Shown here one piece after another: positions 11,232 through 64,000 of a stretch of DNA of 64,000 bases. Each line of letters begins with the position of its first letter. Position 1 is the first letter of the stretch. The DNA is from Christensenellaceae bacterium. GTDB taxonomy: Bacteria > Bacillota > Clostridia > Christensenellales > Aristaeellaceae. Location of the stretch: contig JAFLST010000011.1 in NCBI GenBank assembly GCA_022510815.1, positions 4,713-68,712 of the forward strand. The letters run 5' to 3'. A model generated the notes under the pieces. That model ran no database searches and was not told the DNA's origin. It saw nothing but the letters and a program-made list of their open reading frames with translations. A program made the position numbers and the translations under genes.

Positions 11232-13016
11232 ATGGCATCACGCTTTCCGGCCGCGTGGCTGGACGAGTTGCGGCAGCGGTCCGACATCGTACAGGTCATA
11301 TCCGGCTACATGCAGCTCAAGCGCAACGGGCGCAAGTACTGGGGGCTGTGCCCCTTCCACGGGGAGAAGACGGCGTCCTTCTCCGTCGACGCGGAGCAGC
11401 AGCTTTACTACTGCTTCGGCTGCAAGGCGGGCGGGAGCGTCATCCAGTTCGTCATGGACATCGAGCGGATGGACTTTCAGGAAGCCGTGCGCTTTCTGGC
11501 GGATCAGCAGCGGATGCCCCTGCCCCAGATGGAGGACGACGAGGACTATCAGCGCCGCCGCACCCAGCGGGACAGGCTCCTCGGCGCAAACAAGGAAGCC
11601 GCCCGATATTTCCATCAGATGCTTTTCACTGACGCGGGCAAGCCCGTGCTCAGCTACCTCAAGCGCCGCGGCGTGACGGATAACGTGATCCGCCGCTTTG
11701 GTCTGGGCGCGGCCCCGGAGAGCTGGGACTCGCTGACAAAGCACATGCGGGAGCTGGGCTACACGGACGACGAGCTGCGGCTGTGCGGCCTGACCGTCAT
11801 CAAGGAGGCGGAGCCCGCCACCGAGGACAGGCCCGCCAGACCCCGCCGCGCCTTCGACATGTTCCGCAACCGCGCCATCTTCCCGATCATCGACCAGTAC
11901 GGCAACGTGCTGGCCTTTGGCGGCCGGGCGCTGGGCGATCAGCAGCCCAAGTACCTGAACACCTCCGACACGCCGGTTTTCAACAAGCGGCTGGGCGTGT
12001 ATGCGGCCAACCTCCTGCGCAAGGAACGACATCTGGAGCGGGTTGTGCTGGTGGAAGGATACATGGACGTGGTATCGCTCTCGCAGTTCGGCGTGACGGG
12101 CGTGTGCGCGACGCTGGGCACCGCGCTGACCAACGAACAGGCGCGTCTGCTCAAAAAATTCGCCCCGAAGGTCTATCTGGCCTACGACGGCGACAGCGCC
12201 GGACAGCACGCCATTCTCCGGGGCCTTGACATCCTGAAGGCCGAGGGCATCCCCGCCCGGGTGCTGGATTTCCCCGACGGCCTTGATCCGGACGAATTCA
12301 TCCGCCGGGACGGGCTGGAGGGCTTCGACAGGCTCCCCGCCCTGACGCCGGAGACCTACCGCATGCGCCGGCTGAAGGAGGAGTACGACCTCTCCTCGCA
12401 GGAGGGCCGCACCGAATATGCCCGGGCCTGCGCGAACATCCTGCGCGATCTGGAGCCTGTGGAGCTGGAGGGCCACCTGCAGGAGCTGATGGTGCAGACG
12501 GGCTTTACCCGGGAGGTACTGGTGGCGCAGATCGGCGTTCGCGCGCCGCAGACCGCCGCCGTTCCCTCTCCTGCGCAGCAGCCCCGGCCCGCCAGACGCC
12601 CTGACGCCGCCGTCAGCGAGGACACGCGCGCGCAGGAGCTGCTGATATCCCTGTTTGCCACGGGCCGCGTGCCCGTTGACATTGCCTCTGCGGAGGACTT
12701 TGACGACCCGCTGCTCCGGCTGCTCTATGAGGAGCTGAGCGGCGGCGCGTCTCCCGCGGGGCTCGCCGAAAGCCAGCAGGACGAGGGCTCCCGGGAGCGG
12801 GTCAGCCGCCTGCTGATGGCGCCTCCCGGAGAGGATCGCGACCAGCTCATCGAGATGGCCCGCGACTGCCTGAACCGGCTGCGGATCATCCGCTGTCAGG
12901 AGCGGCTAAACGGCATCATGCGCTCGATCAACACCCTGGACGGCGAGGAAAAAGCCGCCGCCATGCGGGAAGCGCAGCGCCTGAACACCGAATTGAAACG
13001 ACTCAAGTCCGCCTGA
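11232..13016 (+). CDS. dnaG: DNA primase
   Basis: Zinc finger [13 protein letters not shown]...[10 protein letters not shown], a TOPRIM region ([10 protein letters not shown]) and 594 aa. Confidence 0.92.
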
Positions 13017-34324: not shown

Positions 34325-34353
34325 TGGACGCCGCGCCTGCTGCTTGCTATGAT
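34325..34353 (+). promoter_or_regulatory. candidate promoter of the decayed XRE gene
   Basis: TGGACG, 17 nt, TATGAT, located 24 nt upstream of the ATG at 34377. Confidence 0.45.
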
Positions 34354-34376
34354 ATTCCCGGAAGGCGGTCAAGCCG

Positions 34377-34637
34377 ATGGATCAAATCAAAATCGGCAGG
34401 TTCATCGCAGAGAACAGAAGGACCAAGGGTCTGACGCAGGCTCAACGGGCGGAGAAGCTGCGCATCACCGACCGGGCTGTGTCGAAGTGGTAGACGGGCA
34501 GAGGGCTGCCGGACTCCTCGATCATGCTCGAGCTGTGCGCGCTGCTGGGCATCAGCGTCAACGAATTGTTACAAGGAGGCGCCATCGACATGGAAAACGA
34601 CCGCAAGGCCGCAGGAGCTGGAACAAAAAGGTGCTGA
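34377..34637 (+). pseudogene. XRE-family HTH regulator inactivated by an in-frame TAG and C-terminally degenerate
   Basis: MDQIKIGRFIAENRRTKGLTQAQRAEKLRITDRAVSKW-TAG(34491-34493)-TGRGLPDSSIMLELCALLGISVNELLQGG... The stop replaces the conserved Glu of the SKWE(T/R)G motif. Confidence 0.7.
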
Positions 34638-34878: not shown

Positions 34879-35082
34879 TCAGTTGCTCCGGTTCAGGGCC
34901 GTGTTGACAGCATAGAAGTTCTGCTCGTTCAGCCTTGCGCGCAGCAGGTTCAGCGCCTCGGAGAACCGCTGATAATGCACGATCTCCCGCTCGCGCAGAT
35001 AGCGCAGGACGTCCTTCACGTCGGGATCGTCCGCCTGCCGCAGGAGGTTTTCGTAGGTGGTGCGAGCCTTTTGCTCTGCTGC
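34879..35082 (-). CDS. cotJC: 3' segment of the split spore-coat gene cotJC (Mn-catalase family)
   Basis: Encodes AAEQKARTTYENLLRQADDPDVKDVLRYLREREIVHYQRFSEALNLL..., the conserved CotJC C-terminus. Homology begins exactly at the 8-bp repeat 35075-35082. Confidence 0.85.
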   Translation of the reverse strand, partial: AAEQKARTTYENLLRQADDPDVKDVLRYLREREIVHYQRFSEALNLLRARLNEQNFYAVNTALNRSN

Positions 35083-35105
35083 AATCACATAAGAACAAGC
35101 TGAAG

Positions 35106-36659
35106 TCAAAAACTCCAGTGGATCTCGATGGGGACGACCCGCGTGCCGGGGATGCGCTTGCTGACGGTGATATGGTCAATGAGCGTTTCCACCATCTCAC
35201 GGGTGAGGTGGTCGAGGTTGGTGTAGGCCTCCACCAGCTCGCGGCGGTTGTCGCCGGACGCGATTCTGGCGTCAATGCCGGAGAGCTGCTTTTCGCTGTC
35301 GGCAACGAGCCGCTCCAAGCGATCACGTTCTGCAGCGAAGCCCTTGGACAGGTCTGTGAAGTCGCTCTCGGACAGCAGGCCCTTCACCTTATCCATATAC
35401 AGCTCCCGGATGCCCTTGGAATACTCCGCAATCTTGCTCCTGTAGACGGCGATATCAGAGAGCAGGCGTGATTTCTGTCCCTGCAGGTTATCGCAGAACT
35501 CGATGTTCCGCTCCAGCGCGTCCCTGTCAAGGTACTGCGCTGACAGGCGGTTCAGCTCGTCGAGCACAAGCTGCTCCAGCTTGTCAACCGAGATAAAGGA
35601 ACCGACGCAAGCGTCCTTGGATACATGCCGGTTCGAGCACTTCAGATAGCGCTTGTCCTGACACTTGGCAGAGCGCATCACATAGCCGCAGTGGGCGCAG
35701 CGGGCTTTCCCCGCGAACAGGCCGACCTTGCCCGCCGCAAAGGGCTTGGCCTTCTGCGCAATCATCGCCTGCACCCTGTCCCACAGTTCGCGGTCAACGA
35801 TCGGCTCATGCGTCCCCTCAACGATATACCATTCGCTTCTGGGGCGCGGCTTATTCTGCTTGGTCTTGTAGGATACGCTGCCGTATTTGCCCTGCACCAT
35901 GTGGCCGATGTAGATTTCGTTCGTCAGCATGTCGGAGATCGCAAAGTACTTCCAGAGCGTGCCGCTTTTTGTCTTCGGCTGCTTATACCGCAAGCCGTGC
36001 AAGCGCTTGTACTCGGTCGGATTAGGAATGCCCCGGTCATTGAGCATGCGGGCGATGGCGGACTTCCCGTGCCCCTGCGCGAAAAGCGCGAACACCTCGC
36101 GGACAACGGCAGCGGCTTCCTCGTCGACGAGCAGGCGGCCCTTTTGATCGGGGTCTTTCTTATAGCCGTAAAGGGCAAACGCGCCGATATGGAAACCGTT
36201 CTTCCGTCTGTTGGTCAGGACGCTGCGGATGTTTTCCGACATGTCCTCCAAATACCACTCATTGACCAGCCCGTTGATCTGCCGGGATTTTTTGTTGCCC
36301 TTGTTGGCGGTATCCGCGTTATCGACGATGCTGATGAAGCGGATGCCCCATATCGGGAACAGGCCGTGAATATACTTCTCGACCAACTCCAGTTCGCGGG
36401 TAAACCGTGACTGCGTCTTGCAGAGAACGACGTCAAACCTGCGCTGCTCCGCATCCTGCAGCAGCCGGTTAAACTGCGGGCGCCGTCTGTCAGCGCCGGT
36501 ATAGTCGTCATCGCTGTATATGTTGTAAAGCTCCCACCCCTGTTCCATGGCGTACTGGAGCAGCATCATCTTCTGATTCTGGATGCTGTTGCTGTCATCC
36601 GTTTCAAACTGCTTGTTTCTGTCCTCCTCGGATAAGCGGCAATAAATCGCTACTTTCAT
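35106..36659 (-). CDS. large serine recombinase (resolvase domain, recombinase domain, zinc ribbon, DUF4368-like tail)
   Basis: The N-terminus MKVAIYCRLSEEDRN holds the catalytic Ser. CAHCGY...KCSNRH is the zinc ribbon. The C-terminal coiled-coil ends ...IDHITVSKR...IEIHWSF. 517 aa with an AAGGAG RBS. Confidence 0.92.
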   Translation of the reverse strand: MKVAIYCRLSEEDRNKQFETDDSNSIQNQKMMLLQYAMEQGWELYNIYSDDDYTGADRRRPQFNRLLQDAEQRRFDVVLCKTQSRFTRELELVEKYIHGLFPIWGIRFISIVDNADTANKGNKKSRQINGLVNEWYLEDMSENIRSVLTNRRKNGFHIGAFALYGYKKDPDQKGRLLVDEEAAAVVREVFALFAQGHGKSAIARMLNDRGIPNPTEYKRLHGLRYKQPKTKSGTLWKYFAISDMLTNEIYIGHMVQGKYGSVSYKTKQNKPRPRSEWYIVEGTHEPIVDRELWDRVQAMIAQKAKPFAAGKVGLFAGKARCAHCGYVMRSAKCQDKRYLKCSNRHVSKDACVGSFISVDKLEQLVLDELNRLSAQYLDRDALERNIEFCDNLQGQKSRLLSDIAVYRSKIAEYSKGIRELYMDKVKGLLSESDFTDLSKGFAAERDRLERLVADSEKQLSGIDARIASGDNRRELVEAYTNLDHLTREMVETLIDHITVSKRIPGTRVVPIEIHWSF

Positions 36660-36723
36660 GCTCTGATCTCCTTAGCGATAAAAACCTTCTTCACGCGGAT
36701 GGCGCCGCGCGGAAAACGGCCTA

Positions 36724-36975
36724 TCACTCCCGCCGGACAACGCTGACGTTTTTGCCCTTTTCGATTCGGTTAATCATCGCAATCCATATCTGCGTGAATT
36801 GCTCCTTCGTTATCGTGCTTTCGCCGCTCCGGAAAACGCTTTTGCATGGACTCGCGCTTATCGCCTTCCCGGTATGCTCCAATCGCCCATCTCCTTTCAA
36901 AAAACGGCTATTGCACCCTATGACTCGCGGCATGTCCACTATGACCGCCGAAGCGCCGCCCTCATTGGACAGCAC
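36724..36975 (-). CDS. small hypothetical ORF directly upstream of the recombinase (coding status uncertain)
   Basis: 83 codons from a GTG without a clear RBS. It ends 65 nt before the recombinase start. No motif recognised. Confidence 0.3.
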   Translation of the reverse strand: MLSNEGGASAVIVDMPRVIGCNSRFLKGDGRLEHTGKAISASPCKSVFRSGESTITKEQFTQIWIAMINRIEKGKNVSVVRRE

Positions 36976-37143
36976 AGAGAACTCTGTATGCTCAAGCTGG
37001 TGTCACCCCATGCCATAACCGGCTGCAAGTCAAGGGATGGGACACATCCTCTGCCTCGACAGAAAGCCAGCCCTGCCGTCTGGCGACTGTGCTGAAAACG
37101 GTCTTTGCGTGCCACATTGTGCGGGTATTTGCAAAGACCGCGA

Positions 37144-37172
37144 TTGACATGCGGGAGCGGACGTTGTAAAAT
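37144..37172 (+). promoter_or_regulatory. sigma-A type promoter of the first HD-GYP gene
   Basis: TTGACA, 17 nt, TAAAAT. A 10-bp inverted repeat cggtctttgc/gcaaagaccg (37099-37140) abuts the -35. Confidence 0.55.
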
Positions 37173-37274
37173 TGATACGGTCTGATATGACCTGTTCCTT
37201 TTCTTTCCATCGGTTTTGTGCATCATTTTGAGCTGGCAGCATGGCGCTGTTCCGGCAGGCAAGGAGGAAGCCGC

Positions 37275-39128
37275 GTGCAGGAATTGATTGAGCGCTATCT
37301 GGCAAACGTCGCCCGGTGCGCGGTTCTCAACAGGCCGACCTTTGAGCCGGGGCTGAGCGACAGTGAACTGCTCGAGGGCATCCAGCGGAACGCGCAGGAG
37401 GTTCACGAGCTGATCCTCCAGAACAATGAGATCCTCGACCAATTCCTGCTGGGCAGAAATCCCGCGGAGATCACCGACGAGGATATCCGCGATCTGAGCA
37501 CGTTTGCTGACCGGCTGTTCCTCTACAACCACAGCATCGACGACGGCACCGCTTACCGCATCCATCGCCTGCTGCTCGACGTGGCAACGCTGCGCGGCGA
37601 CCGGGATATGCGCATCCGGGAGCTGTACTATGTGGGCATCACGCTCCAGTATATGAAGATCAGCTGCAATGACCTTAATCTCTTTGCGCTGCTGGGCGAG
37701 GTACGGGCCGCGTTTGACGCCGCTGCCGAGTATATGGCTGTCTACGAGGAGATCGAGAGCGAGCAGACGCGCAGCTTCATCGTGCGCAGCCTCGCCAACC
37801 GCAAGCTGGGGCTGGAACGCACGAACAAGAGCTGGGACGAATATGACAAGCTGTTCACCGAAGCGATGGACGTGATCACGTCGCCCAAATACCGCGCGAT
37901 GAACCCCAATCTGCCGTGGGACGCTTTTGAATACTCCATGCACGCCGACCGGGCCGGGCTGACCGACGCGATGCGCTTTAGCGACGATCCCCTGCGCGCG
38001 CAGCAGGTGCTCGCCTCCGCGCGCTACATCTACGAGCACACGGAGGAGCACGAGCGCAACAACAACCGCTTTACCAGCTCTCGCGTATCCTACCTCTATG
38101 CGGCGGCGCGGTACCATGCCGGGGAAATCACACTGCACGCGCTGCTCTCCATGCTCTTCGAGCTCTACGAGCATGCCGACTGGTCTGACTATTCCGACAA
38201 GGGTCTGGTCTTCAACGTCAACGTCCCCTGCTATATCCAGTATTACACTGGCAGGCTGCCCCGCGAAGAGCGCGCCATGTGGCGCACAAAGCGGCGCGAG
38301 GTCTTCTCGAAGGTCTCCGAATACCTCGCGAGGATGAACGCGAGTGAATACATGTTCCTGCTGAACAACAACGTGCAGGAGATCGTTGCTCTGCGCGCGC
38401 AGGGTGACAGGAGCTTCCGCGAGCACAAGCTTGAATACATCCTCAGCTGCCACCGGCCGACATATGTGCATTCCCACGTCGTCGCTTGGCTGGCCGGACA
38501 GCTGGCATGGCGGATGACGGAGGTTTCCCCGAGCGCGCTGATCGGCGTACTGGGCGTGAAGAACGAGGACGGAGTTCGCGCCCGCGCTCAGGAGATCGCG
38601 CAGCATGTGTACGAGTGCGCCCTCTACCACGACATGGGCAAGAACATGCTGCTCAGCGCCGTAAGCCTGTATCACCGGCGGCTGATTGATCTGGAATTCG
38701 GCAACATCAAGTGGCATCCCATCTTCGGCGCGCGGCTTCTGCGCATGTGCGGCGCGGGCAAGGACGCGCAGCAGGTGGCCTTGTATCACCATCTCTTTTA
38801 TGACGGCACCGGCGGCTATCCGCAGGACTGCGAGCCCTGCAGCGCTTCGGCGCGGCCGCTGGTAGGCATTGTCTCGGTTGCCGACTCGCTCGACGCGGGC
38901 ACGGACAATATCGGTCGCTGCTACGCGGCGGTCAAGACCTTTGAAACGCTGGTTGGCGAGCTGCGCGCAGGCAGCGGCACACGCTATGATCCGGCGGTCG
39001 TCGCGCTGTTTGACGACGAGTCCTTCATCGCACGCATGCGCGACGGGCTCACCGCCACGCGCCGGGAGATTTACTGCCACGCCTATCGCTCGTCAGAGGA
39101 AGCAGCGGGCGCGGACGGCGTGCTGTAA
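37275..39128 (+). CDS. HD-GYP domain protein with a ~400-aa uncharacterised N-terminal domain
   Basis: GTG after AAGGAGGA. C-terminal motifs are ALYHDMGK, HHLFYDGTGGYP and VADSLDAGT. Confidence 0.8.
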   Translation: MQELIERYLANVARCAVLNRPTFEPGLSDSELLEGIQRNAQEVHELILQNNEILDQFLLGRNPAEITDEDIRDLSTFADRLFLYNHSIDDGTAYRIHRLLLDVATLRGDRDMRIRELYYVGITLQYMKISCNDLNLFALLGEVRAAFDAAAEYMAVYEEIESEQTRSFIVRSLANRKLGLERTNKSWDEYDKLFTEAMDVITSPKYRAMNPNLPWDAFEYSMHADRAGLTDAMRFSDDPLRAQQVLASARYIYEHTEEHERNNNRFTSSRVSYLYAAARYHAGEITLHALLSMLFELYEHADWSDYSDKGLVFNVNVPCYIQYYTGRLPREERAMWRTKRREVFSKVSEYLARMNASEYMFLLNNNVQEIVALRAQGDRSFREHKLEYILSCHRPTYVHSHVVAWLAGQLAWRMTEVSPSALIGVLGVKNEDGVRARAQEIAQHVYECALYHDMGKNMLLSAVSLYHRRLIDLEFGNIKWHPIFGARLLRMCGAGKDAQQVALYHHLFYDGTGGYPQDCEPCSASARPLVGIVSVADSLDAGTDNIGRCYAAVKTFETLVGELRAGSGTRYDPAVVALFDDESFIARMRDGLTATRREIYCHAYRSSEEAAGADGVL

Positions 39129-39173
39129 GCCCGTTGAATCGCGTGGGGATCGCCCTTTTACCGCAGACAATAT

Positions 39174-39240
39174 AAAAGCTCTAAGGGACTTGTTGATGAC
39201 GGAAAAGATATCCGTCATAAGTAAACCCTTAGAGCTTTTT
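39174..39240. terminator. bidirectional compound hairpin between convergent genes
   Basis: Outer stem aaaagctctaaggg/cccttagagctttt encloses an inner stem atgacgg/ccgtcat. T-runs lie on both strands. Confidence 0.6.
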
Positions 39241-39297
39241 CTGATAGGGAGGCCGTTCCCGGAACGAGGAGCCGCAAAGCGGCTGTGCGCCTTCTTT

Positions 39298-39981
39298 TCA
39301 GGTTTGATTCAGCAGCCACGCAAAGCCCTTGCCTGTTCTGAGCCCGCTGTCGACAAAGTGATTCCCCGGATTCCATTCCAGTGTACACGCTTTGACCGCA
39401 TCCTGTTGGCGCAGCAGCTCATGCTGCCGACGAATGCCGCTGCCGACTTCAGCCATCACCCTGTTTCTCGTTTTTTCTTCCTTATCCCCGAGACTGAGAT
39501 AAACACGCGGAGACCGCATCTCATGCTCCTCGGCATAGCGAGTCCATTGCGGAAACCAGACAGACGGCGACACGGCAGCTATGCCCTGAAACAGATCGGT
39601 CTGATAAGCCGCCCACAGGGAAAACAGACCCGCCAGCGAATAGCCTCCCAGATAATATCGCTTCGTTTCTTCCGTCGGATAGCATGACGCAATCTCCGGC
39701 ATCAGGGTTCCCGTGATATAGGCCAGCGTGTCCTTTGCTCCTGCTCCGAAGCTTTCCCTTCCGAATACGGCAGGGGCCTCCCACGGCGACAGCTCCCTGT
39801 TCCAATCCGAGATCTGAAACGCAGCAAGCAAAAACCGCTGACCGGATGTGAGCTCCCTGACGCACGCAATCTCCTGATCCAACGCCTCCAAGTCGTGCTC
39901 ATCAACGGGCTGTATCAGCACGTCAGATGCCCGACTGTCGCCGTATAGGCGGCAGGCTTTATCCCCGATGATTCGCTCCAT
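39298..39981 (-). CDS. alpha/beta hydrolase (putative esterase family)
   Basis: Nucleophile elbow GGYSLAG. 227 aa. Confidence 0.7.
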   Translation of the reverse strand: MERIIGDKACRLYGDSRASDVLIQPVDEHDLEALDQEIACVRELTSGQRFLLAAFQISDWNRELSPWEAPAVFGRESFGAGAKDTLAYITGTLMPEIASCYPTEETKRYYLGGYSLAGLFSLWAAYQTDLFQGIAAVSPSVWFPQWTRYAEEHEMRSPRVYLSLGDKEEKTRNRVMAEVGSGIRRQHELLRQQDAVKACTLEWNPGNHFVDSGLRTGKGFAWLLNQT

Positions 39982-40037
39982 CCGCTTCGCACCCCGTATG
40001 CGTCACAAAGGCTTCATGCCTGAACATATGCGATCTT

Positions 40038-40823
40038 TTACCCCAGCGCCACATCCAGCGCCATCATCAGAACAAAACCGGCGGCAAAGCACAGCGTGCC
40101 GATATTGGAGTGCTTGCCCAACGACATCTCAGGGATGAGATCCTCCACAACCACATAGAGCATTGCGCCAGCGGCAAAACCCAGCAGATAAGGAAGCGCC
40201 GGCACGAACAGCTCCGCCAGGCAGATGGTAAGAATGGTTCCAATGGGCTCCACAATGCCGGAAAGCGCGCCCCATGCAAACGCCTTGGAGCGGCTGACCC
40301 CTTCGCTGCGCAGGGGCAGAGAAACGATGGCGCCCTCCGGGAAATTCTGAATGGCGATACCCAAAGCAAGGGCTATCACCGCCGTCATGCCGATTCCGCT
40401 CTGTCCCGAGAGCCATCCGGCGCAGACCACGCCCACAGCCATTCCTTCCGGGATATTGTGCAGGATCACAGCCAGCACCATCATCGCTGATTTCGGGAGC
40501 TTGCATTTGGGGCCTTCCGCTTCGCTGCCGTTCTTGTGCAGATGCGGGATCAGGTGGTCGATCAGCAGCAGGAACAGGAAGCCGATCCACAGCCCCATCG
40601 CCGCCGGAAAAAACGCCCATTTTCCCATCGTCTCCGCCTGATCCATCGCAGGGATCAGCAGGCTCCAGACGCTGGCGGCCGTCATCACGCCAGACGCAAG
40701 CCCCAGCAGGCCATGATGAACCGCCTGATTCATCTCGCGCCGCATGAAAAACACACAGGCCGCGCCCAGCACCGTTCCAGCCAGCGGGAGAAGAACACCA
40801 ATCAATACTTCGTTCGTGACCAT
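40038..40823 (-). CDS. ZIP-family divalent metal transporter (ZupT-like)
   Basis: Start at MVTNEVLIG after GGAGG. Polytopic, with HNIPEGMAVG and IQNFPEG motifs. Confidence 0.85.
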   Translation of the reverse strand: MVTNEVLIGVLLPLAGTVLGAACVFFMRREMNQAVHHGLLGLASGVMTAASVWSLLIPAMDQAETMGKWAFFPAAMGLWIGFLFLLLIDHLIPHLHKNGSEAEGPKCKLPKSAMMVLAVILHNIPEGMAVGVVCAGWLSGQSGIGMTAVIALALGIAIQNFPEGAIVSLPLRSEGVSRSKAFAWGALSGIVEPIGTILTICLAELFVPALPYLLGFAAGAMLYVVVEDLIPEMSLGKHSNIGTLCFAAGFVLMMALDVALG

Positions 40824-40923
40824 CCTGCAATCCTCCATCCTGATCCGACCCAACCCTAATCCTTCAACAGTATAGCACATGAGGCTGTTCCATGTTAAGC
40901 ATCATCCATAGAACTTTTCCAGA

Positions 40924-40953
40924 TTGACGGCTGCTCCTCCTTTGGGATATACT
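40924..40953 (+). promoter_or_regulatory. candidate promoter of the PHP gene
   Basis: TTGACG, 18 nt, TATACT. Confidence 0.45.
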
Positions 40954-41030
40954 ATAACATAATCTTCCGGAAGTGTTTGCCGCAATCGGCGGCGCCGCTA
41001 ACGGCTGATACGTCACAAAGGAGGAAAAGA

Positions 41031-41843
41031 ATGCCTTCCTTTATCTATGAAACCCACATGCACACGATGCCGTCGAGCGCATGTTCCAAATCGCGGGGCC
41101 GTGATTACGTGCCGCGGTATATCGACGCGGGATACGCCGGCATCATCATCACCGATCATTTCTGGCACGGCAACTGCGGCATCGACCGCTTGCTTCCATG
41201 GACGGAGTTTGTCCATCAGTTCTGCGCGGGATATGAGGACGCGCTGAACGAAGGGATCAAGCGCGGATTCCCGGTGTTTTTCGGCTGGGAGGAATCCTTT
41301 GAGGGCGACGATTATCTCGTCTACGGTCTGGACAAGCAGTGGCTATTGGACCATCCCGAGGTGACCGCCTGGGATCGGAAACGGCAGTATCAGGAGGTGC
41401 ACCGATACGGCGGCTGCGTCGTTCATGCCCACCCCTTCCGGGCGGCATCCTATATTCGCGATATCCATCTGTCCCCTTGGCTGGCGGACGCCATCGAAGG
41501 ATACAACGCAGGCAATCAGCAGCACTGGAATATTCTTGGTATGCGATACGCGCAGGTGCGCGGCCTACCCATCACCGCAGGCTCCGACAACCATTCCGCG
41601 GAATGGATGAATCCGTCCAATCTGGCTGGCGTGGCATTCGAGCATCCCCTGCGTTCGGTGGATGATTACGTCCGCGCCATCCGTGAGCAGCAGCCCATGA
41701 GGCCCTTCCTGCCCCAAGAGCTCCCGGCTTGGACCTCCGCGCTCGAGCCTGATCTGCCCGTTATCTGGCATGACCGGGAGGAAAAGCCCTTCAGGCAAAG
41801 CACCATGGAAGCGCTGCGCGGCGAGCTCCCGTGGCGGCGATAA
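41031..41843 (+). CDS. PHP-domain metal-dependent phosphoesterase
   Basis: ATG after AAAGGAGG. N-terminal YETHMHTMPSSACS (HxH) with later HAHPFR and SDNH motifs. Confidence 0.7.
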   Translation: MPSFIYETHMHTMPSSACSKSRGRDYVPRYIDAGYAGIIITDHFWHGNCGIDRLLPWTEFVHQFCAGYEDALNEGIKRGFPVFFGWEESFEGDDYLVYGLDKQWLLDHPEVTAWDRKRQYQEVHRYGGCVVHAHPFRAASYIRDIHLSPWLADAIEGYNAGNQQHWNILGMRYAQVRGLPITAGSDNHSAEWMNPSNLAGVAFEHPLRSVDDYVRAIREQQPMRPFLPQELPAWTSALEPDLPVIWHDREEKPFRQSTMEALRGELPWRR

Positions 41844-41883
41844 ACAGATGCAAAAATCAAGCATAGCATAGGCCGAGAGGTGC

Positions 41884-43215
41884 ATGGAGATGGAAACGGC
41901 AATCTTGAGCGTATTGGAAACGGCGACGATTGCGGTCAGTGGTTTTCTGGTCAAGAAGTATGTGTTCTTAGAGCCGGATATGGAGCCCAAAAAGCAGCGC
42001 GTCTTTTACGCCGTCAGCTTTATCCTGATCGCCTGCGTGTTTCTCGCCTTTGGCAAGGATGCGGCGGCGATGGCGATTCTGGCGCTCATTGGCTTGAACA
42101 TCTGCATAGTCTGCAAGGAGCATCGGCTGTGGGGGCTGCTCATGATGATTCCCTTTCTGGGCATCATCAACGGGCTGTTGATTCCCATCATGCTTGTGCC
42201 GCCGTATCTGCTCTCCCTGACTGAGCGGGGAGCGTTCATCTATCAGCTCGTGGTTTATGTGGTATTGGCCGCGCTGCTGGCATTGTTTTATGTGAAAGGT
42301 CAGCGCTGGCGCACATGGTTCCATGAGAACATGCGGCACAGGAGCCTGCGGAAGTCAGAGAAATATCTGCTCTGGATGGTCGGCATTCTGATGATGTTCT
42401 TCTCCACCTCGGGCGTCATGCAGATCGTGAGAGGCGCGCAGGCGACGGATGGCGGTTTGGGACACGAGATGGCGGCGTTTGTCGGCATCAGCAGCATGGC
42501 GGCGTTTATGATGACGATCATCATCATCGTGCTGATCATGCAGGGCAATCAGCGTTCTTTTTACCACGAGCAGGTCTCCCAGATGCAGTCCGGGATGATC
42601 TCGTTCATGGCCGAGGTCGTGGAGAACAGGGACGACAATACCGGTGGACACATCCGGCGAACAGCGGAATATGTGAAGGGCATCACCAAAGAGCTGAAAA
42701 AACAGGGCGCGTACAGCGATATCCTGACGGACAGGTATATGACGGATGTGGCGGTGGCGGCGCCGCTGCACGACATCGGCAAGATTCATATTCCGGATGC
42801 CATTCTCAACAAGCCGGGAAGGCTGACGGACGAAGAATTCGCGACGATGAAGACCCACACTACCGCGGGTGAGGAGCTGCTGAACCACGCCAAGGAGGAG
42901 CTGGGAACATCGGAGTATCTGAACATGGCGGTGGACATGGCGGCGTATCACCATGAGTGGTGGAATGGCAATGGCTATCCCTATGGCATCAGCGGGGAAG
43001 CGATCCCGCTTTGCGCGAGGATCATGGCGGTGGCGGACGTCTTCGACGCGCTGACATCCAAGCGTTGCTATAAGAGCGCCATGCCGCTTGAAAAGGCATA
43101 CGCGATCATCCGGGAGGAATCCGGTACGCATTTTGACCCGGCAGTCGTGGCCGCGTTTTTCGCGGCGGCGGAGGACATGATTCCGGCGGGAGAAACCGAA
43201 TCAGGTAATGGATGA
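41884..43215 (+). CDS. membrane-anchored HD-GYP domain protein
   Basis: About 210 aa of TM helices, then LHDIGKIHIPDAILNKPGRLT, HHEWWNGNGYPYG and VADVFDALTSKRCYK. Confidence 0.85.
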   Translation: MEMETAILSVLETATIAVSGFLVKKYVFLEPDMEPKKQRVFYAVSFILIACVFLAFGKDAAAMAILALIGLNICIVCKEHRLWGLLMMIPFLGIINGLLIPIMLVPPYLLSLTERGAFIYQLVVYVVLAALLALFYVKGQRWRTWFHENMRHRSLRKSEKYLLWMVGILMMFFSTSGVMQIVRGAQATDGGLGHEMAAFVGISSMAAFMMTIIIIVLIMQGNQRSFYHEQVSQMQSGMISFMAEVVENRDDNTGGHIRRTAEYVKGITKELKKQGAYSDILTDRYMTDVAVAAPLHDIGKIHIPDAILNKPGRLTDEEFATMKTHTTAGEELLNHAKEELGTSEYLNMAVDMAAYHHEWWNGNGYPYGISGEAIPLCARIMAVADVFDALTSKRCYKSAMPLEKAYAIIREESGTHFDPAVVAAFFAAAEDMIPAGETESGNG

Positions 43216-43260
43216 TATGGATCAGTATTATCATTGAACAAACTGTGAAGGAGGATAACC

Positions 43261-44010
43261 ATGGAGATCTTATCACAGCTCAACAGCGCGCCGGTCTACC
43301 TGATCTGCGGCGGCATCATCGCTTTCGTCGCGGTGATCTGCGTGATCTTTCTGGTGCGGGCATACCGGGCGGGCATTGCCATCGGCATGGATCGGACTAA
43401 AATGAAGCGGGCCATCACCTCGAGCGCCACGTTCTCTTTCCTGCCCAGCGTCGGCATCCTGCTGGGCGTCATCGCGCTGTCCGGCAGTCTGGGGACGCCT
43501 TGGCCTTGGCTGCGCCTTTCCGTCATCGGAGCGCTCCATTATGAGACGCAGGTGGCTCAGGCGGCAGGCGAACAGGTGGGCATGCAGACGCTCTCCGCCG
43601 CGGAGATGACGCCTTCCGCGTTTGCCACCATCGCGCTGCTGATGAGCCTGTGCATCATGTGGGGCATGGTGCTGTCGATCTTCTTCAACAAGCGCTACAC
43701 GAAAAAGCTCGGCGGCGGGAGCAAGACTGGCGGCGCGGGCTTTGGCGACATGGCCATGACAGCCATGTTCATCGGGCTGGTCTCCGCCTATATTGGCAGC
43801 TACATCGGCGGCTTCGTTTCCGGCGGCGGATCGTTTGCCTTTGCCGGGGACTGGATGCCGCTGGTCGTGGTCGCGGTTTCCTGCCTTGCCATGGCTGGAT
43901 TCGTGTACTTGGCGGAGAAAAAGGGGCACGCATGGCTGGACAGCTTCTCCATTGCCGGAAGCATGATCATCGGCATGGCGGCGGCGGTCATCGTGGGCGC
44001 TCTGGTGTAA
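43261..44010 (+). CDS. polytopic membrane protein (DUF5058-like)
   Basis: 249 aa with multiple TM spans and a GAAGGAGG RBS. The family name is from memory and was not verified. Confidence 0.5.
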   Translation: MEILSQLNSAPVYLICGGIIAFVAVICVIFLVRAYRAGIAIGMDRTKMKRAITSSATFSFLPSVGILLGVIALSGSLGTPWPWLRLSVIGALHYETQVAQAAGEQVGMQTLSAAEMTPSAFATIALLMSLCIMWGMVLSIFFNKRYTKKLGGGSKTGGAGFGDMAMTAMFIGLVSAYIGSYIGGFVSGGGSFAFAGDWMPLVVVAVSCLAMAGFVYLAEKKGHAWLDSFSIAGSMIIGMAAAVIVGALV

Positions 44011-44023
44011 AGGGGGAATCATC

Positions 44024-44707
44024 GTGAACGAAAAAGCCGTATCTGAAGCCTATAATAAGAAAACCCATGTCATCGGGCGGATTGTCACCGCTTTGACGCT
44101 CATCATGCTGCTGGCGGCTCCTTTCCTGATCGGCGGCGTCCTCGGGGCCATGCCGGATCTCTCCGCCGTGGGCAGGGCATTCCTCTCCGTCGGCCTTGTG
44201 TGGACAGTGAGCAGCGTGGTGGAATTCCTGATCTATACGCCCATGCTGGGCGCGGGCGGCGGATATCTCGCGTTCATCACCGGCAACCTCATCAACATGA
44301 AGATTCCCTGCGCGGTCAACGCCCGCGATATGGTAGGCGCAAAGACCGGCACGCCGGAAAACGAGATCATCTCGACCCTGTCGATTGCCACGTCGTCTCT
44401 GGTGACGATCCTCGTGCTGGCGGTGGGCGTGCTCCTGCTGGCGCCGCTGCAGCCTGTGCTGCAGTCTCCCGTCCTCCAGCCTGCCTTTGACAACGTGGTG
44501 CCCGCGCTGTTCGGTGCCATGGCCTACCGCTACTATCGCAGGAACATGAACATCGCTCTGACGCCTCTGGTGCTGATGAGCGTGCTGTTCATTCTCGTGC
44601 CCGGCCTGACCGGCTCCACCAGCTTCATGATCATCCCCTCCGGCGCGATCGCCATCGCCATTGCCTATGTGATTCACCTCAAGAAGACGAAGGAGGCCGC
44701 CCAGTGA
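44024..44707 (+). CDS. polytopic membrane protein
   Basis: 227 aa with a GTG start after AAGGGGGA. Tightly spaced between the DUF5058-like gene and the M20 gene. Confidence 0.5.
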   Translation: MNEKAVSEAYNKKTHVIGRIVTALTLIMLLAAPFLIGGVLGAMPDLSAVGRAFLSVGLVWTVSSVVEFLIYTPMLGAGGGYLAFITGNLINMKIPCAVNARDMVGAKTGTPENEIISTLSIATSSLVTILVLAVGVLLLAPLQPVLQSPVLQPAFDNVVPALFGAMAYRYYRRNMNIALTPLVLMSVLFILVPGLTGSTSFMIIPSGAIAIAIAYVIHLKKTKEAAQ

Positions 44708-46152
44708 TGACCGTGCTGTTGGTTCTGGCTGCAGCCGTGGGGCTGCTCCTGCTTCTTCTGTGCATTGCGGTCGTCAGAACGCTGCTGATGCCGACCAAGG
44801 AATCACGCTATCGCCCGCCCGTGGAGGACGACGCGCCCGCGGCCAAGCTGGCGGAAAAGCTGTCGGCCATGGTGCAGTGTGACACGACCTCCCATCCGGG
44901 TCAGGCGGAGCCGAAAAAGTTCCACGCGTTCCATCAGGTGCTCGAGGAGCTGTTCCCGCTGGTGCACAAGCATCTGGAAAAGACCGATATCGACGGCAAT
45001 CTCCTGTTCCGCTGGAAGGGCAGAAGCCAGGAGGACCCCATCCTGCTCATGAGCCATCAGGACGTCGTCCCGGCAGAGGGAAAGTGGAGCCACGCGCCAT
45101 TTTCCGGCGACATCGCGGACGGCAAGGTTTGGGGCCGCGGCACGGCGGACACCAAGGCGTCTTTGATGGCCTTCTTCCAAGCCGTCGAGGAGCTGCTGGC
45201 AGAGGGCTATGTGCCCGCGCAGGACGTGTATCTGGCCTCCTCCTGCACGGAAGAATGGAGCGGCGACGGCGCTCCGAAGATCGTGGCGGAGCTGAAGCGC
45301 CGGGGCGTCCGGCTGTTCCTCGTCTGCGATGAGGGCGGCGGCATTATCTCCGAGCCGATCGGCGGCATCCACGGCAACTTTGCCATGGTGGGCGTGTTTG
45401 AAAAGGGCAAGGCCAACGTGCGCTTCACAGCCCGCAGCACAGGCGGTCACGCCAGCACGCCCGTGAAAAACACCCCCGCTGCACGGGTAGCAGCGTTCAT
45501 TCACAGCATGGAGACCCGTTCGCCCTTTCAGAAAAAGCTGCTGCCGGAGGTCACGGCGATGTTCCAGCGGCTGGCTCCTTACGCGCCTTTCGGGATTCGG
45601 CTGGTCTTTGGGAACATCTGGCTGTTCGGCCCGCTGCTCAAGATTGTCCTGCCCATGATCAGCGCGCAGGCGGGGGCTATGCTCCAGACGACGACCGCCT
45701 TTACGGTGCTCTCCGGCTCCGAGGCTTACAACGTGCTGCCGCAGGAGGCCTGCGTCGGGGTGAACATGCGGTTCATTCCTCATCAGGGGGAGGCGGAGAG
45801 TCTGGCCCTCATCAAAAAGCGTGCCGAGCAATTCGGTCTGGAGACGGAAGTCCTGCTGTCCAACGATTACTCCATCCCGGTAGATATCCATGGCGAGGCG
45901 TTCCAGCAGGTGGAGCGGGTCGTCGCGGAGACCTTCCCCGGCCTTCCCGTCAGCCCCTACGTCATGACCGGGGCCACCGACGCCTATTTCTATCAGGAGG
46001 TCTGTCCCAGCTGCATCCGCTTCGCTCCGGTGGTCTATGGCCCCGAGCAGATGAAGGGCATGCACGGCATCGACGAGAACATCGAATGCAGCTGCCTGCC
46101 CGGTGCGGTTCGGTTCTATCAAAACCTCATCCGGGCACAGGAACAGCGGTAA
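44704..46152 (+). CDS. M20/M25/M40-family metallopeptidase with an N-terminal membrane anchor
   Basis: Motifs LLMSHQDVVPA and GRGTADTKAS. 482 aa. Confidence 0.8.
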   Translation: MMTVLLVLAAAVGLLLLLLCIAVVRTLLMPTKESRYRPPVEDDAPAAKLAEKLSAMVQCDTTSHPGQAEPKKFHAFHQVLEELFPLVHKHLEKTDIDGNLLFRWKGRSQEDPILLMSHQDVVPAEGKWSHAPFSGDIADGKVWGRGTADTKASLMAFFQAVEELLAEGYVPAQDVYLASSCTEEWSGDGAPKIVAELKRRGVRLFLVCDEGGGIISEPIGGIHGNFAMVGVFEKGKANVRFTARSTGGHASTPVKNTPAARVAAFIHSMETRSPFQKKLLPEVTAMFQRLAPYAPFGIRLVFGNIWLFGPLLKIVLPMISAQAGAMLQTTTAFTVLSGSEAYNVLPQEACVGVNMRFIPHQGEAESLALIKKRAEQFGLETEVLLSNDYSIPVDIHGEAFQQVERVVAETFPGLPVSPYVMTGATDAYFYQEVCPSCIRFAPVVYGPEQMKGMHGIDENIECSCLPGAVRFYQNLIRAQEQR

Positions 46153-46168
46153 GGCATATCACATGCAG

Positions 46169-46205
46169 CAAGGCGATTTCAAAGTGAAGTCGCCTTGTTT
46201 TCGTT
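46169..46205 (+). terminator. intrinsic terminator at the right end of the element
   Basis: caaggcga ... tcgccttg stem followed by ttttcgtt. Confidence 0.65.
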
Positions 46206-46237
46206 CAGGAAGGGCTTGTCCCACCAAAACCTTGTAC

Positions 46238-46660
46238 TTAGGCCATCGCACCATCTGCTGCCAGGTCCTCATGCAGATCGGTGATCGGGTCGCCCTTCAC
46301 GCCAATGAACGCGGCGGTATGCGGCGCGCCGGAAGCGGCCTGCGGGTACACGCCCTGCGTGTGATCGACATAATAGGTGTCAAAGCCAGCAGCCCTGACC
46401 TGCGCGTCGGTCAGATTGCGGGTAAGCTGATGCACCATCGCGCCGACGATTTCCAGATGTCCCAGCTCCTCGGTGCCGATATCGGTCAGCAGGCCCTTGA
46501 GCTCCGGGAAGGGCATGGCATAGCGCTGGCTGAGGTAGCGGATGGACGCGCTCAGCTCGCCGTCAGGGCCGCCGTACTGGCTGATGATAATGTTGGCCAT
46601 GCGCGGATTGGGCGTCGCGATGCGAACCGGGTATTGAAGCTGCTTTTCATAAACAAACAT
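46238..46660 (-). CDS. cotJC: 5' segment of the split spore-coat gene cotJC (Mn-catalase family)
   Basis: MFVYEKQLQYPVRIATPNPRMANIIISQYGGPDGELSASIRYLSQRY...TEELGHLEIVGAMVHQL...DLHEDLAA. After the repeat at 46254-46261 it reads 5 unrelated codons (DGAMA) and a stop. Confidence 0.88.
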   Translation of the reverse strand: MFVYEKQLQYPVRIATPNPRMANIIISQYGGPDGELSASIRYLSQRYAMPFPELKGLLTDIGTEELGHLEIVGAMVHQLTRNLTDAQVRAAGFDTYYVDHTQGVYPQAASGAPHTAAFIGVKGDPITDLHEDLAADGAMA

Positions 46661-46666
46661 GGTCGG

Positions 46667-47176
46667 TTACACCTCCGCTGTCGTCGTCCCCGCAGAGGAC
46701 GCGCCATACTCCCAAGGCCACGGATCATCCAGCCAAGTCCAGCGACCGGTCGCCGTCGAGGTGGCAAAGGTGCTGGCATAGTTCGGTTCGCCGGCCTGCG
46801 CCGCCATCTGCTGATAGAGCGCAAGGGCGATCGTATCCGTCGGATGGGTGTCCAGATAAAGCCGCATTTCCCACGCCGCAAAGGAATAAATCTGCTTCTG
46901 CGTGGGGCGGGCGGTAACGGGCGACGAGGTGCTGGTCAGGGGCTTGTTCAGTTCGGGATAGAGCGTACCCAGCGGCAGCGCCTGCGCAGGCTGAATGATC
47001 TGCGTGAGCACCTGCGGGACGACGGTCACCATCGCGTCGGTCTGCTCAGCCGTGGCAGCTTGAACCACAACGGGCGCAGCAGCCGCAGCCGGAACCGCGG
47101 AAGCCGCAGCCGGCAGAGAAGCCTCCTCAGCGGGCGTGCAGGGGACCGGGCAGGGCCAGTTCAGTACAAACGCCAT
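46667..47176 (-). CDS. CotJA-CotJB fusion protein
   Basis: A single ORF. The N-terminal part has AMVTVVPQ...ALPLGTLYPELNKPL (CotJA-like). The C-terminal part has FAAWEMRLYLDTHPTD...WTWLDDPWPWEY (CotJB). The start at MAFVLNW is tentative. Confidence 0.7.
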   Translation of the reverse strand: MAFVLNWPCPVPCTPAEEASLPAAASAVPAAAAAPVVVQAATAEQTDAMVTVVPQVLTQIIQPAQALPLGTLYPELNKPLTSTSSPVTARPTQKQIYSFAAWEMRLYLDTHPTDTIALALYQQMAAQAGEPNYASTFATSTATGRWTWLDDPWPWEYGASSAGTTTAEV

Positions 47177-47265
47177 AAAAATAACATCCTTCCTGAGTGA
47201 GAATAGCGGCATATTGACCGCCACTCCCATCCTATGCGGAAGGATGTTTTCTGTGTCGAATCGGA

Positions 47266-61748: not shown

Positions 61749-61756
61749 AATTGGAA

Positions 61757-61872
61757 TCCGGCGGCGACCTACTCTCCCGGGCCGTGTCCAGCCAAGTACC
61801 ATCGGCACTGAGAGGCTTAACTGCTGTGTTCGGGATGGGAACAGGTGGAACCCTCTCGTCATTGCCACCGGA
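61757..61872 (-). rRNA. rrf: 5S ribosomal RNA
   Basis: The reverse complement reads TCCGGTGGCAATGACGAGAGGGTTCCACCTGTTCCCATCCCGAACACAGCAGTTAAGCC...GGGAGAGTAGGTCGCCGCCGGA. Confidence 0.92.
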
Positions 61873-62079
61873 AATGGTAGCTATTCTGTTGCAGGGCTTC
61901 TCTCGCGCGTTACCTCTTCAGTCCCGCTCGCTCTTCCCCGCTCTTTGCACACACCCTGACAACTGCACATCGAATGATTCGTCTCAACGCTTGACCTTTT
62001 CTCTTGCTCTTTCCGCTCAATTGATCTCAGTCTCTCGCTGGCCTTTTCCTCCAGCTTTGAACCGACCTGAAATCAAGCC

Positions 62080-64000
<1,921 letters not shown>

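Follow-up and report, generated by a model that had tools for sequence, protein, structure and literature searches.

In a 64-kb stretch of the genome of an uncultured, high-GC Christensenellaceae bacterium (contig JAFLST010000011.1 of assembly GCA_022510815.1, positions 4,713 to 68,712; here referred to as the window, with coordinates counted from its first nucleotide), the spore coat gene cotJC is divided by an 11,179-bp segment whose ends have the makeup of attL and attR sites of a serine recombinase that is encoded at the left edge of the segment and is specific for one site in cotJC. It follows from the sequence that recombination of the two sites at a GA dinucleotide would free the segment as a circle and restore a 200-codon cotJC gene indistinguishable from the intact gene of related bacteria. 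We think it probable that excision rejoins cotJC in the sporulating mother cell. That such excision would be developmentally timed is likely in view of two observations, namely, a conserved sigma-E-like motif in front of a small open reading frame (ORF) within the segment and purifying selection on cotJC in two species that share a junction.

The break in cotJC and its attachment sites

When the window was compared by blastn with the intact cotJC genes of three relatives (loci L001, L002, and L092), homology was found to end at position 35082 in one piece and to begin at position 46254 in the other, with 8 bp being common to both. These 8 bp form the octamer TCTGCTGC, located at positions 35075 to 35082 and 46254 to 46261. 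The octamer occurs five times in the window, with 5.2 occurrences being expected, and is unremarkable per se; the significance of the repeat lies in its position and not in the rarity of the octamer. The 5' part of the gene (codons 1 to 135; 46256 to 46660, minus strand) belongs to an ORF (46238 to 46660) that runs into the arm of the element, where it reads DGAMA before a stop codon, and the 3' part extends from codon 136 to the stop codon (34879 to 35074, minus strand). The initial annotation of this DNA had recognized the CotJC start and the DGAMA read-through but assigned 134 aa to the first piece, which comprises 135 CotJC codons plus 2 nt.

Deletion of 11,179 bp in silico yielded a single ORF of 200 codons and a stop codon. 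This is the amount initially given, which had, however, been stated in addition to one repeat copy, whereas the total already includes one; the length of the joined ORF, previously put at 199 codons, is 200. The joined product gave one continuous match to the Pfam family Mn_catalase (residues 1 to 183; E value, 7e-57), could be aligned through the junction with the solved Mn catalase Alr3090 (residues 1 to 181), and shares 97% full-length identity with the natural 200-aa protein P0001 and 94% with each of P0004 and P0006. The proposal that the gene is restored exactly by deletion across the 8-bp repeat is thus borne out by the breakpoints and by the identity to P0001, and the end-to-end alignment that had been suggested as a check proved to be contiguous. 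With 110 bits, the joined protein falls below the NCBIfam cutoff for a true manganese catalase (350 bits), as a protein of the CotJC type should, and it has the Mn_catalase fold, the length of about 190 to 200 aa, and the gene position directly 3' of cotJB that characterize this class. In the Alr3090 alignment, the break falls in a conserved Ala-Ala-Glu motif, the Glu of which we take to be a ligand of the di-Mn center.

The 5' part is preceded by a cotJA/B-like gene with homology to CotJB (46667 to 47254, minus strand; probable start ATG at 47176), and a sigma-K-like motif, AC-N16-CATAGGAT, is located upstream of the cotJ operon at positions 47254 to 47229. In Clostridioides difficile, operons of the cotJB/cotJC type are sigma-K dependent, and by analogy, cotJC of the source organism would be expressed in the mother cell. 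As expected for a gene-intervening element, the coding sequence of such a sporulation gene is interrupted (at codon 135/136, downstream of cotJB), the insert encodes its own site-specific recombinase, and precise excision would restore the ORF. Uninterrupted cotJC genes, which the initial annotation had proposed to look for at the syntenic locus, are present in L001, L002, and L092 beside cotJB, yacL, and radA. An assembly artifact is excluded because an independent ENA contig, L090, carries the identical architecture with 98.9% identity over 21.4 kb.

The recombinase gene ends 23 bp from the left repeat copy, as initially annotated (35106 to 36659, minus strand), and the sequence beyond its stop codon forms one arm of an attachment site. 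A position matrix derived from 75 family arms was used to scan the window with a threshold of 5 bits. Only two matches were obtained, at 35104 (minus strand; 29.6 bits) and 46226 (plus strand; 20.3 bits), which are exactly the two junctions; no further att-like site above this threshold was detected in the window, and none was detected in L001, L002, L091, or L092. The attL site (46226 to 46261) consists of the P arm (46226 to 46253) and the 8-bp core (46254 to 46261), and the attR site (35075 to 35110) consists of the core (35075 to 35082) and the P' arm (35083 to about 35110). Following the recombinase stop codon, the family arm is conserved as GTTGTTCTTATATGATTGCAGCA, directly followed by GA, with the window version being CTTGTTCTTATGTGATTGCAGCA followed by GA. 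Its inverted partner at the far end of the segment reads CCTTGTACTTAGGCCATCGCACCA followed by TC, and an equivalent arm is located at the cotJC-N junction in other loci. Measured from GTTGT (in the window, CTTGT) up to CA, each arm has 23 nt, and the two are arranged symmetrically around GA, so that the center of symmetry is the GA closing the 8-bp repeat on the gene strand. From this symmetry, crossover is predicted at GA, that is, at positions 46254 to 46255 in attL and 35075 to 35076 in attR. A central GA is also invariant in the targets of TndX, a distant relative that likewise contains DUF4368. Attachment sites of large serine recombinases span about 40 to 50 bp and have imperfect inverted arms, a 2-bp crossover, and hybrid attL and attR forms; the two junctions share this architecture, with arms conserved across 75 loci, which identifies both as true attachment sites. 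Recombination is predicted to leave ...GAGGACCTGGCAGCAGAGCAAAAGGC... at the rejoined cotJC junction and ...CTTATGTGATTGCAGCAGATGGTGCGATGGCC... at the joint of the circle.

All intact high-GC relatives (L001, L002, L003, L088, L089, and L092) have GCGGCGGA(G/A)CAGAA at codons 134 to 137. The split lineages (the window, L090, L093, and L094) retain GCAGCAGA at this site, though the gene-wide GC content at third codon positions (GC3) is about 0.8, which points either to a constraint on the att core or to intact alleles being the poorer targets. Several elements share a GGGACAAGC motif 30 to 50 bp inside the P arm, among them those of the window (46153 to 46225) and of L063 and L083 (attL regions).

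The recombinase family and its small companion ORF

The recombinase is a full-length protein of 517 aa with Resolvase, Recombinase, Zn_ribbon_recom, and DUF4368 domains. Its N-terminal serine motif, YCRLSEED, contains Ser10, and the protein thus combines the catalytic domain, the recombinase domain, and the zinc ribbon of large serine recombinases, in agreement with its initial assignment. The nearest solved structures in the PDB are TnpX, whose catalytic domain gave the best match, and SprA; TP901-1 was also matched. An exact-sequence look-up returned no record of the protein. Scanning of representative genomes, one for each species, revealed at least 549 relatives, and the best 80 of these, with 78 to 86% aa identity, were subjected to locus analysis. 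Their hosts include Lachnospiraceae, Oscillospiraceae, Ruminococcaceae, Anaerotignum, Anaerotruncus, Flintibacter, and others, and related recombinases occur in hundreds of species of gut Clostridia. Cultured carriers include Anaerotruncus colihominis, Flintibacter muris, and Anaerotignum lactatifermentans.

In 77 of the 80 loci, the recombinase gene adjoins a cotJC fragment broken at one and the same codon. The downstream sequence is a cotJC fragment from residue 133 onwards in 64 loci and a reversed N half ending at residue 136 in 13, where attP is flipped relative to the gene and the polarity toward cotJC is kept; an attP-like joint (tandem copies) follows in two loci, and one locus is unclear. 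The other cotJC half is found 4 to 10 kb away where the flank allows and is not within 10 kb in several loci. Across several bacterial families, the CotJC proteins of the hosts are less conserved (50 to 70%) than the recombinase, and the family therefore moves horizontally. Phage collections contained no close relative (best identity, 41%), and neither did plasmid collections, apart from one 69% match to a Subdoligranulum record of doubtful plasmid status. The window recombinase has the highest GC3 of 79 family members (0.79, with 0.82 for the host cotJC), whereas most other copies have values of 0.4 to 0.5 regardless of the host, many of them well below the host value. The host-like GC3 and the full length of the window recombinase point to long residence of a maintained module.

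Several loci depart from the common arrangement. L008 (after position 1555) and L029 (after position 11551) have attP-like joints, e.g., TATTGCAGCAGATGGGGCAG, behind the recombinase gene inside assembled contigs, which suggests tandem elements. In L085 (8693 to 12002), the cotJC N half and cotJB are inverted directly upstream of the small ORF and the recombinase gene, with the C half downstream; here, inversion and not deletion would rejoin cotJC. An Oscillospiraceae subgroup (L050, L051, L055, L057, L061, L063, L065, L067, L068, L070, L076, L083, and L085) has an extra small ORF (MQPKEEFEQSIQSIDQALGEIERTLE...) between the recombinase gene and the P' arm, with about 250 bp from stop codon to arm. 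In addition, cotJC of other species is broken at up to three further positions, near residue 62 in L041 and L056, near residue 29 in L062, L009, L013, and L044, and near residue 176 in L051, L053, L063, L066, L068, and others. Wherever the flank shows these breaks, a second serine recombinase that is only 22 to 30% identical to that of the window is located nearby, and cotJC is therefore a hotspot for multiple recombinases and can be split into three pieces.

The only nonrecombinase gene common to the family elements is a small ORF of about 50 aa. In the window, it encodes about 52 aa (36724 to 36882, minus strand; TTG start at 36882). It is present in 78 of 81 loci, ends about 70 bp upstream of the recombinase gene, and has the motif CKSVFKSGEsTTSKxQFTKKWIELINRLEK; we regard it as a candidate recombination directionality factor. 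A weak match to calexcitin was dismissed as not meaningful.

Upstream of the small ORF, we identified a sigma-E-like promoter motif, ATA-N17-CATAGGGT (36915 to 36942, minus strand), within the conserved block AATAGTGGACTTGCCGCTATTCATATAGTGTA, the general form of which across four divergent sequence types is ATA-N17-CATAnnnT. The strict pattern ATA-N16-18-CATAnnnT is found in 55 of 77 family loci, compared to 1.4% of random 130-nt windows. The sigma-E signature of C. difficile consists of ATA at -35 and a CATA-type -10 element (PMC3789822). By this match, the recombinase or the directionality factor is a candidate for control by a mother-cell sigma factor. The spacer of the motif is conserved as well, with G(G/T/A)AC(A/T)(A/T)G and a short hairpin (AGYGG-ACTTG-CCGCT; AATAGTGGACTTGCCGCTATT in L010; positions 36942 to 36923 in the window), and may be recognized by a regulator, of the SpoIIID type or another.

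Selection on the split gene and host genes within the segment

The attL-type junction of the window is present not only in L090 but also in two loci from other species, L094 (89% nt identity) and L093 (85.7%), in both of which the M20 terminator is likewise followed by the P arm, the core, and cotJC-N. The split state thus goes back to a common ancestor, and the divergence between the window and L093 must have accumulated while cotJC was already split. Over this interval, the N half shows a ratio of nonsynonymous to synonymous substitution rates (dN/dS) of 0.059 at a dS of 0.56. In comparison with the intact gene of L001, the ratio is 0.035 for the N half (dS, 0.56) and 0.029 for the C half (dS, 0.70), and the window lineage has 3 private amino acid changes in CotJC versus 0 to 6 in intact lineages. 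The divergence accumulated during the split state is hard to reconcile with a dead gene and marks the split cotJC as a gene that remains under purifying selection.

The remainder of the segment encodes eight cargo proteins, all but one of which were named from Pfam matches. These are an HD-domain protein, HD636 (37218 to 39128, plus strand), an esterase (39298 to 39981, minus strand), a ZIP metal transporter (40038 to 40880, minus strand), a PHP-family hydrolase (40977 to 41843, plus strand), an HD-GYP-type HD_5 protein (41884 to 43215, plus strand), a DUF5058 protein (43261 to 44010, plus strand), an unnamed membrane protein (44024 to 44707, plus strand), and an M20 peptidase (Peptidase_M20; 44704 to 46152, plus strand), the gene for which has its own terminator. 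As initially noted, the element lacks phage genes: matches to PHROG families were limited to the recombinase, with none for the HD, esterase, and ZIP genes, and no phage structural, replication, or lysis genes were found in the segment, so it does not qualify as a prophage. It also lacks mobilization, conjugation, and resistance genes, and none of the eight cargo genes is found in the 80 related loci.

The idea of an imported element, which the initial annotation conveyed, is not supported for much of this content. The DUF5058 and membrane-protein genes have counterparts with 89 to 95% aa identity in L002, L091, and L092, with gene order unchanged, and the M20 protein is 86 to 89% identical to those of the same three loci, where its gene adjoins intact cotJC or radA. 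At the DNA level, the block formed by these three genes (43248 to 46152) is 85 to 87% identical to L002 and L092, in which it directly follows the stop codon of intact cotJC in unchanged relative orientation, and its divergence equals that of the flanking radA-yacL-cotJB genes. L001 retains a 42-bp M20 remnant at the corresponding place. In the recombinase-free L091, the PHP gene (75% aa identity) and an HD-GYP remnant (87%) adjoin the block. The host-like genes thus occupy 40977 to 46152 in the window, 10729 to 13630 in L002, 1547 to 4460 in L092, and 6647 to 11442 in L091. HD636, PHP, and esterase genes are also located inside the split arrangement of L093, with matches of 88% and 77% nt identity for the HD-domain and esterase genes, respectively. 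This orthology at host-typical divergence assigns at least five of the eight cargo genes, or about half of the element, to the genus of the host.

The window gene order could not be derived from that of the relatives by one canonical integration, one inversion, or attP x attB recombination in cis. Either the whole 11.2 kb was one circle at the last integration or a later, recombinase-independent block interchange brought the host genes inside. Speculatively, the trapped genes could stem from aberrant excision from a neighboring secondary site, followed by reintegration into cotJC. Recombinases with DUF4368, a domain that marks the clade of TndX, are typically promiscuous transposon enzymes and are known to use multiple sites. 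The more distant CotJC relatives (L003, L005 to L007, L088, and L089) have unrelated flanks and do not help to polarize the change. In L091 (11446 to 11489), the M20 gene adjoins radA directly, and yacL, cotJB, and cotJC are missing from the locus; the region is thus a rearrangement hotspot.

Elsewhere in the window, an XRE-type helix-turn-helix gene between a thioredoxin gene and the cotJC 3' piece (about 34349 to 34620, plus strand) is interrupted in frame by a TAG at a codon that would specify Glu in relatives (…AVSKW*TG…) and is probably a pseudogene. The window edge (61756 to 64000, minus strand) is occupied by a 5S rRNA gene and a partial 23S rRNA gene, of which the 3' two-thirds are present.

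Proposed excision, competing explanations, and known systems

In light of these data, we think it likely that sigma-E RNA polymerase transcribes the small ORF, and perhaps the recombinase gene too, in the sporulating mother cell and that attL x attR recombination becomes possible through the small protein, which would serve as the directionality factor. The cotJC gene would then be joined ahead of the firing of the sigma-K-type cotJ promoter, and the forespore chromosome would retain the insert, so that the split state is inherited. By analogy with C. difficile, the order would be excision first and coat gene transcription second. With regard to origin, the family is horizontally mobile, and nothing but the small ORF, the recombinase gene, and the arms is conserved in it. 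In the source lineage, the module is a long-term resident with neighboring host genes trapped between its att sites.

Several observations weigh against this proposal. A metagenome scan for the attP joint (pattern RTGATYGCAGCAGAYGGKGCGA) gave four matches, all of which were to an unrelated flavin adenine dinucleotide (FAD)-binding VIAADGAN motif with no recombinase gene or cotJC nearby. The small ORF belongs to no Pfam, NCBIfam, or PHROG family, has no convincing PDB match, and does not detectably resemble any of the known directionality factors. The promoter was called from a match to a short consensus, and 22 loci, mostly of one Oscillospiraceae-type sequence group, are without the exact ATA element. 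Furthermore, no single canonical integration yields the host gene content of the segment from the gene order of the relatives, and model organisms can form spores without cotJC-type genes, so that a dead gene would be tolerable to carriers.

The last point leads to the strongest alternative, which we nevertheless consider unlikely: the segment is an ordinary integrative mobile element for which cotJC is merely a conserved, dispensable landing site, excision serves its own transfer if it occurs at all, and carriers lack functional CotJC. The greater conservation of the recombinase (78 to 86%) than of the host CotJC proteins across families speaks for horizontal spread, as the low GC3 of many copies relative to that of their hosts, the promiscuity typical of DUF4368 recombinases, and the dispensability of cotJC paralogues in C. 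difficile also speak for a mobile element. It is opposed by the N-half dN/dS of 0.059 over a dS of 0.56 between two species that inherited one junction, by the intactness of the cotJC halves, none of which was seen to be decayed in the roughly 77 loci carrying one, and by the conservation of a mother-cell-type promoter motif before the small ORF. In addition, the module in the source lineage is ameliorated to the GC content of the host and carries host genes instead of transfer genes.

Purifying selection on both halves would also be explained if the two pieces were translated separately and the resulting polypeptides assembled into CotJC, with no rearrangement of the DNA. The N piece is indeed a complete ORF with the operon promoter, and the family consensus of the P' arm provides an in-frame ATG two codons before Ala-Ala-Glu (TAT ATG ATT GCA GCA GAG; GTG in the window). 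With this start codon (35083 to 35092 in the window), the C fragment could in principle be translated alone, as M-I-A-A-E-Q-K... However, no ribosome-binding site precedes the arm-supplied start codon, the C piece is located behind the recombinase gene and 11 kb from the cotJ promoter, the break lies inside the helix bearing the metal-ligand Glu of the di-Mn center, and the intact recombinase and high-scoring arms would be left without explanation; we therefore hold this alternative to be very improbable. An assembly chimera or a pair of independent decayed paralogues, for which we found no support beyond an octamer that is no rarer than chance, is ruled out for practical purposes by the same structure in L090, by the same junction in L093 and L094, and by the orthology of both pieces to a single intact gene that occupies this locus, next to cotJB, yacL, and radA.

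Returning to excision in the mother cell, a more far-reaching version may be put forward tentatively, although we are inclined to doubt it: the module would be a developmental switch that the host has retained vertically through at least two speciations and that somatically eliminates mostly host genes (HD-GYP, PHP, ZIP, M20, and others) in a manner coupled to gene assembly. With three further unrelated recombinases at residues of about 29, 62, and 176, cotJC in some gut Clostridia would need several independent excisions. Under somatic elimination, the family would also illustrate the capture of host genes by such modules.

So far, sporulation intervening elements, such as skin, SPbeta, vfbin, vrin, gin, and yin, have been established in a few genes of model species, namely, sigK, spsM, spoVFB, spoVR, gerE, and yabG. 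The initial annotation implied that cotJC was new as a target; however, according to a later preprint, Abe et al. (2013) had named it among the sporulation genes used for phage or transposon integration, and in Table S3 of Galperin et al. (2022), cotJC of Laceyella sacchari FBKL4.010 is entered as the site of a skin-like element of 8.1 kb whose recombinase (AUS09617.1) has 517 aa. The searchable literature yielded no experimental study of a cotJC element and no family-level description. Thus, the element class and the target are known already. What is new, and open to testing, is how broad the family is, which small protein may act as its directionality factor, that the split state was passed on through speciation under selection, and that host genes became trapped in the segment. 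With one cotJC codon hit across families of mostly uncultured gut Clostridia, the target has hundreds of natural replicates. The minimal conserved module of two genes includes a small ORF that represents a testable new candidate family of directionality factors for DUF4368-type serine recombinases, of practical interest to the development of recombinase tools. The data further provide evidence that a split sporulation gene can be transmitted through speciation under purifying selection while the insert gains host genes, and they caution that in many gut genomes, a pseudogene or a pair of fragments is liable to be annotated wrongly in place of cotJC.

The architecture that the initial annotation likened to skin and SPbeta, a split mother-cell coat gene with an edge recombinase and exact restoration by deletion, is upheld, and it is strengthened by the true att arms, the cotJC-specific family, and the same-frame intact orthologues. 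A close parallel is the skin element of C. difficile (CD1231 and CD1234, in sigK), in which a 72-aa directionality factor, CD1234, controlled by sigma-E and SpoIIID limits excision to the mother cell, the recombinase being constitutive. Both are non-phage-like inserts that split a clostridial mother-cell gene, with the gene for a large serine recombinase at one end, beside the 3' part of the split gene, and a small acidic or unannotated protein as the (candidate) directionality factor, the gene for which has a sigma-E-type promoter, putative in the window. They differ in that the target here is a coat gene and not a sigma factor, so that excision would be no checkpoint for the whole late program, in that the gene for the candidate factor immediately precedes the recombinase gene and its product shows no sequence relationship to known factors, and in that the recombinase contains DUF4368 and much of the cargo is host derived. 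The order of a small (candidate) directionality factor gene directly upstream of a serine integrase gene resembles sprB-sprA of SPbeta in spsM of Bacillus subtilis, where SprB controls directionality and excision rejoins a spore envelope gene during sporulation. SprA is also among the nearest solved structures, albeit with low identity (E value, 1.6e-12; residues 5 to 373), and SPbeta is an active prophage, unlike the phage gene-free segment described here. The gin element in gerE of Bacillus cereus ATCC 10987 is likewise a nonprophage intervening element in a small mother-cell gene, but it has another target and three recombinase genes instead of one. The Laceyella element shares the target and the recombinase length, and one of its listed gene fragments, of 231 nt, has the length of the C-piece ORF of the window; its host belongs to the Bacilli, and the case is known from a table entry alone; it presumably involves the same recombinase family and the same att site. 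Finally, TnpX and TndX of Tn4451 and Tn5397 have the same domain order, including DUF4368, as well as the central GA, and no solved structure gave a better match than the TnpX catalytic domain. Unlike these transposon enzymes, however, the recombinase described here, with about 31% identity to TndX, is not accompanied by transfer genes and belongs to an essentially single-site family, with 77 of 80 loci at one cotJC codon.

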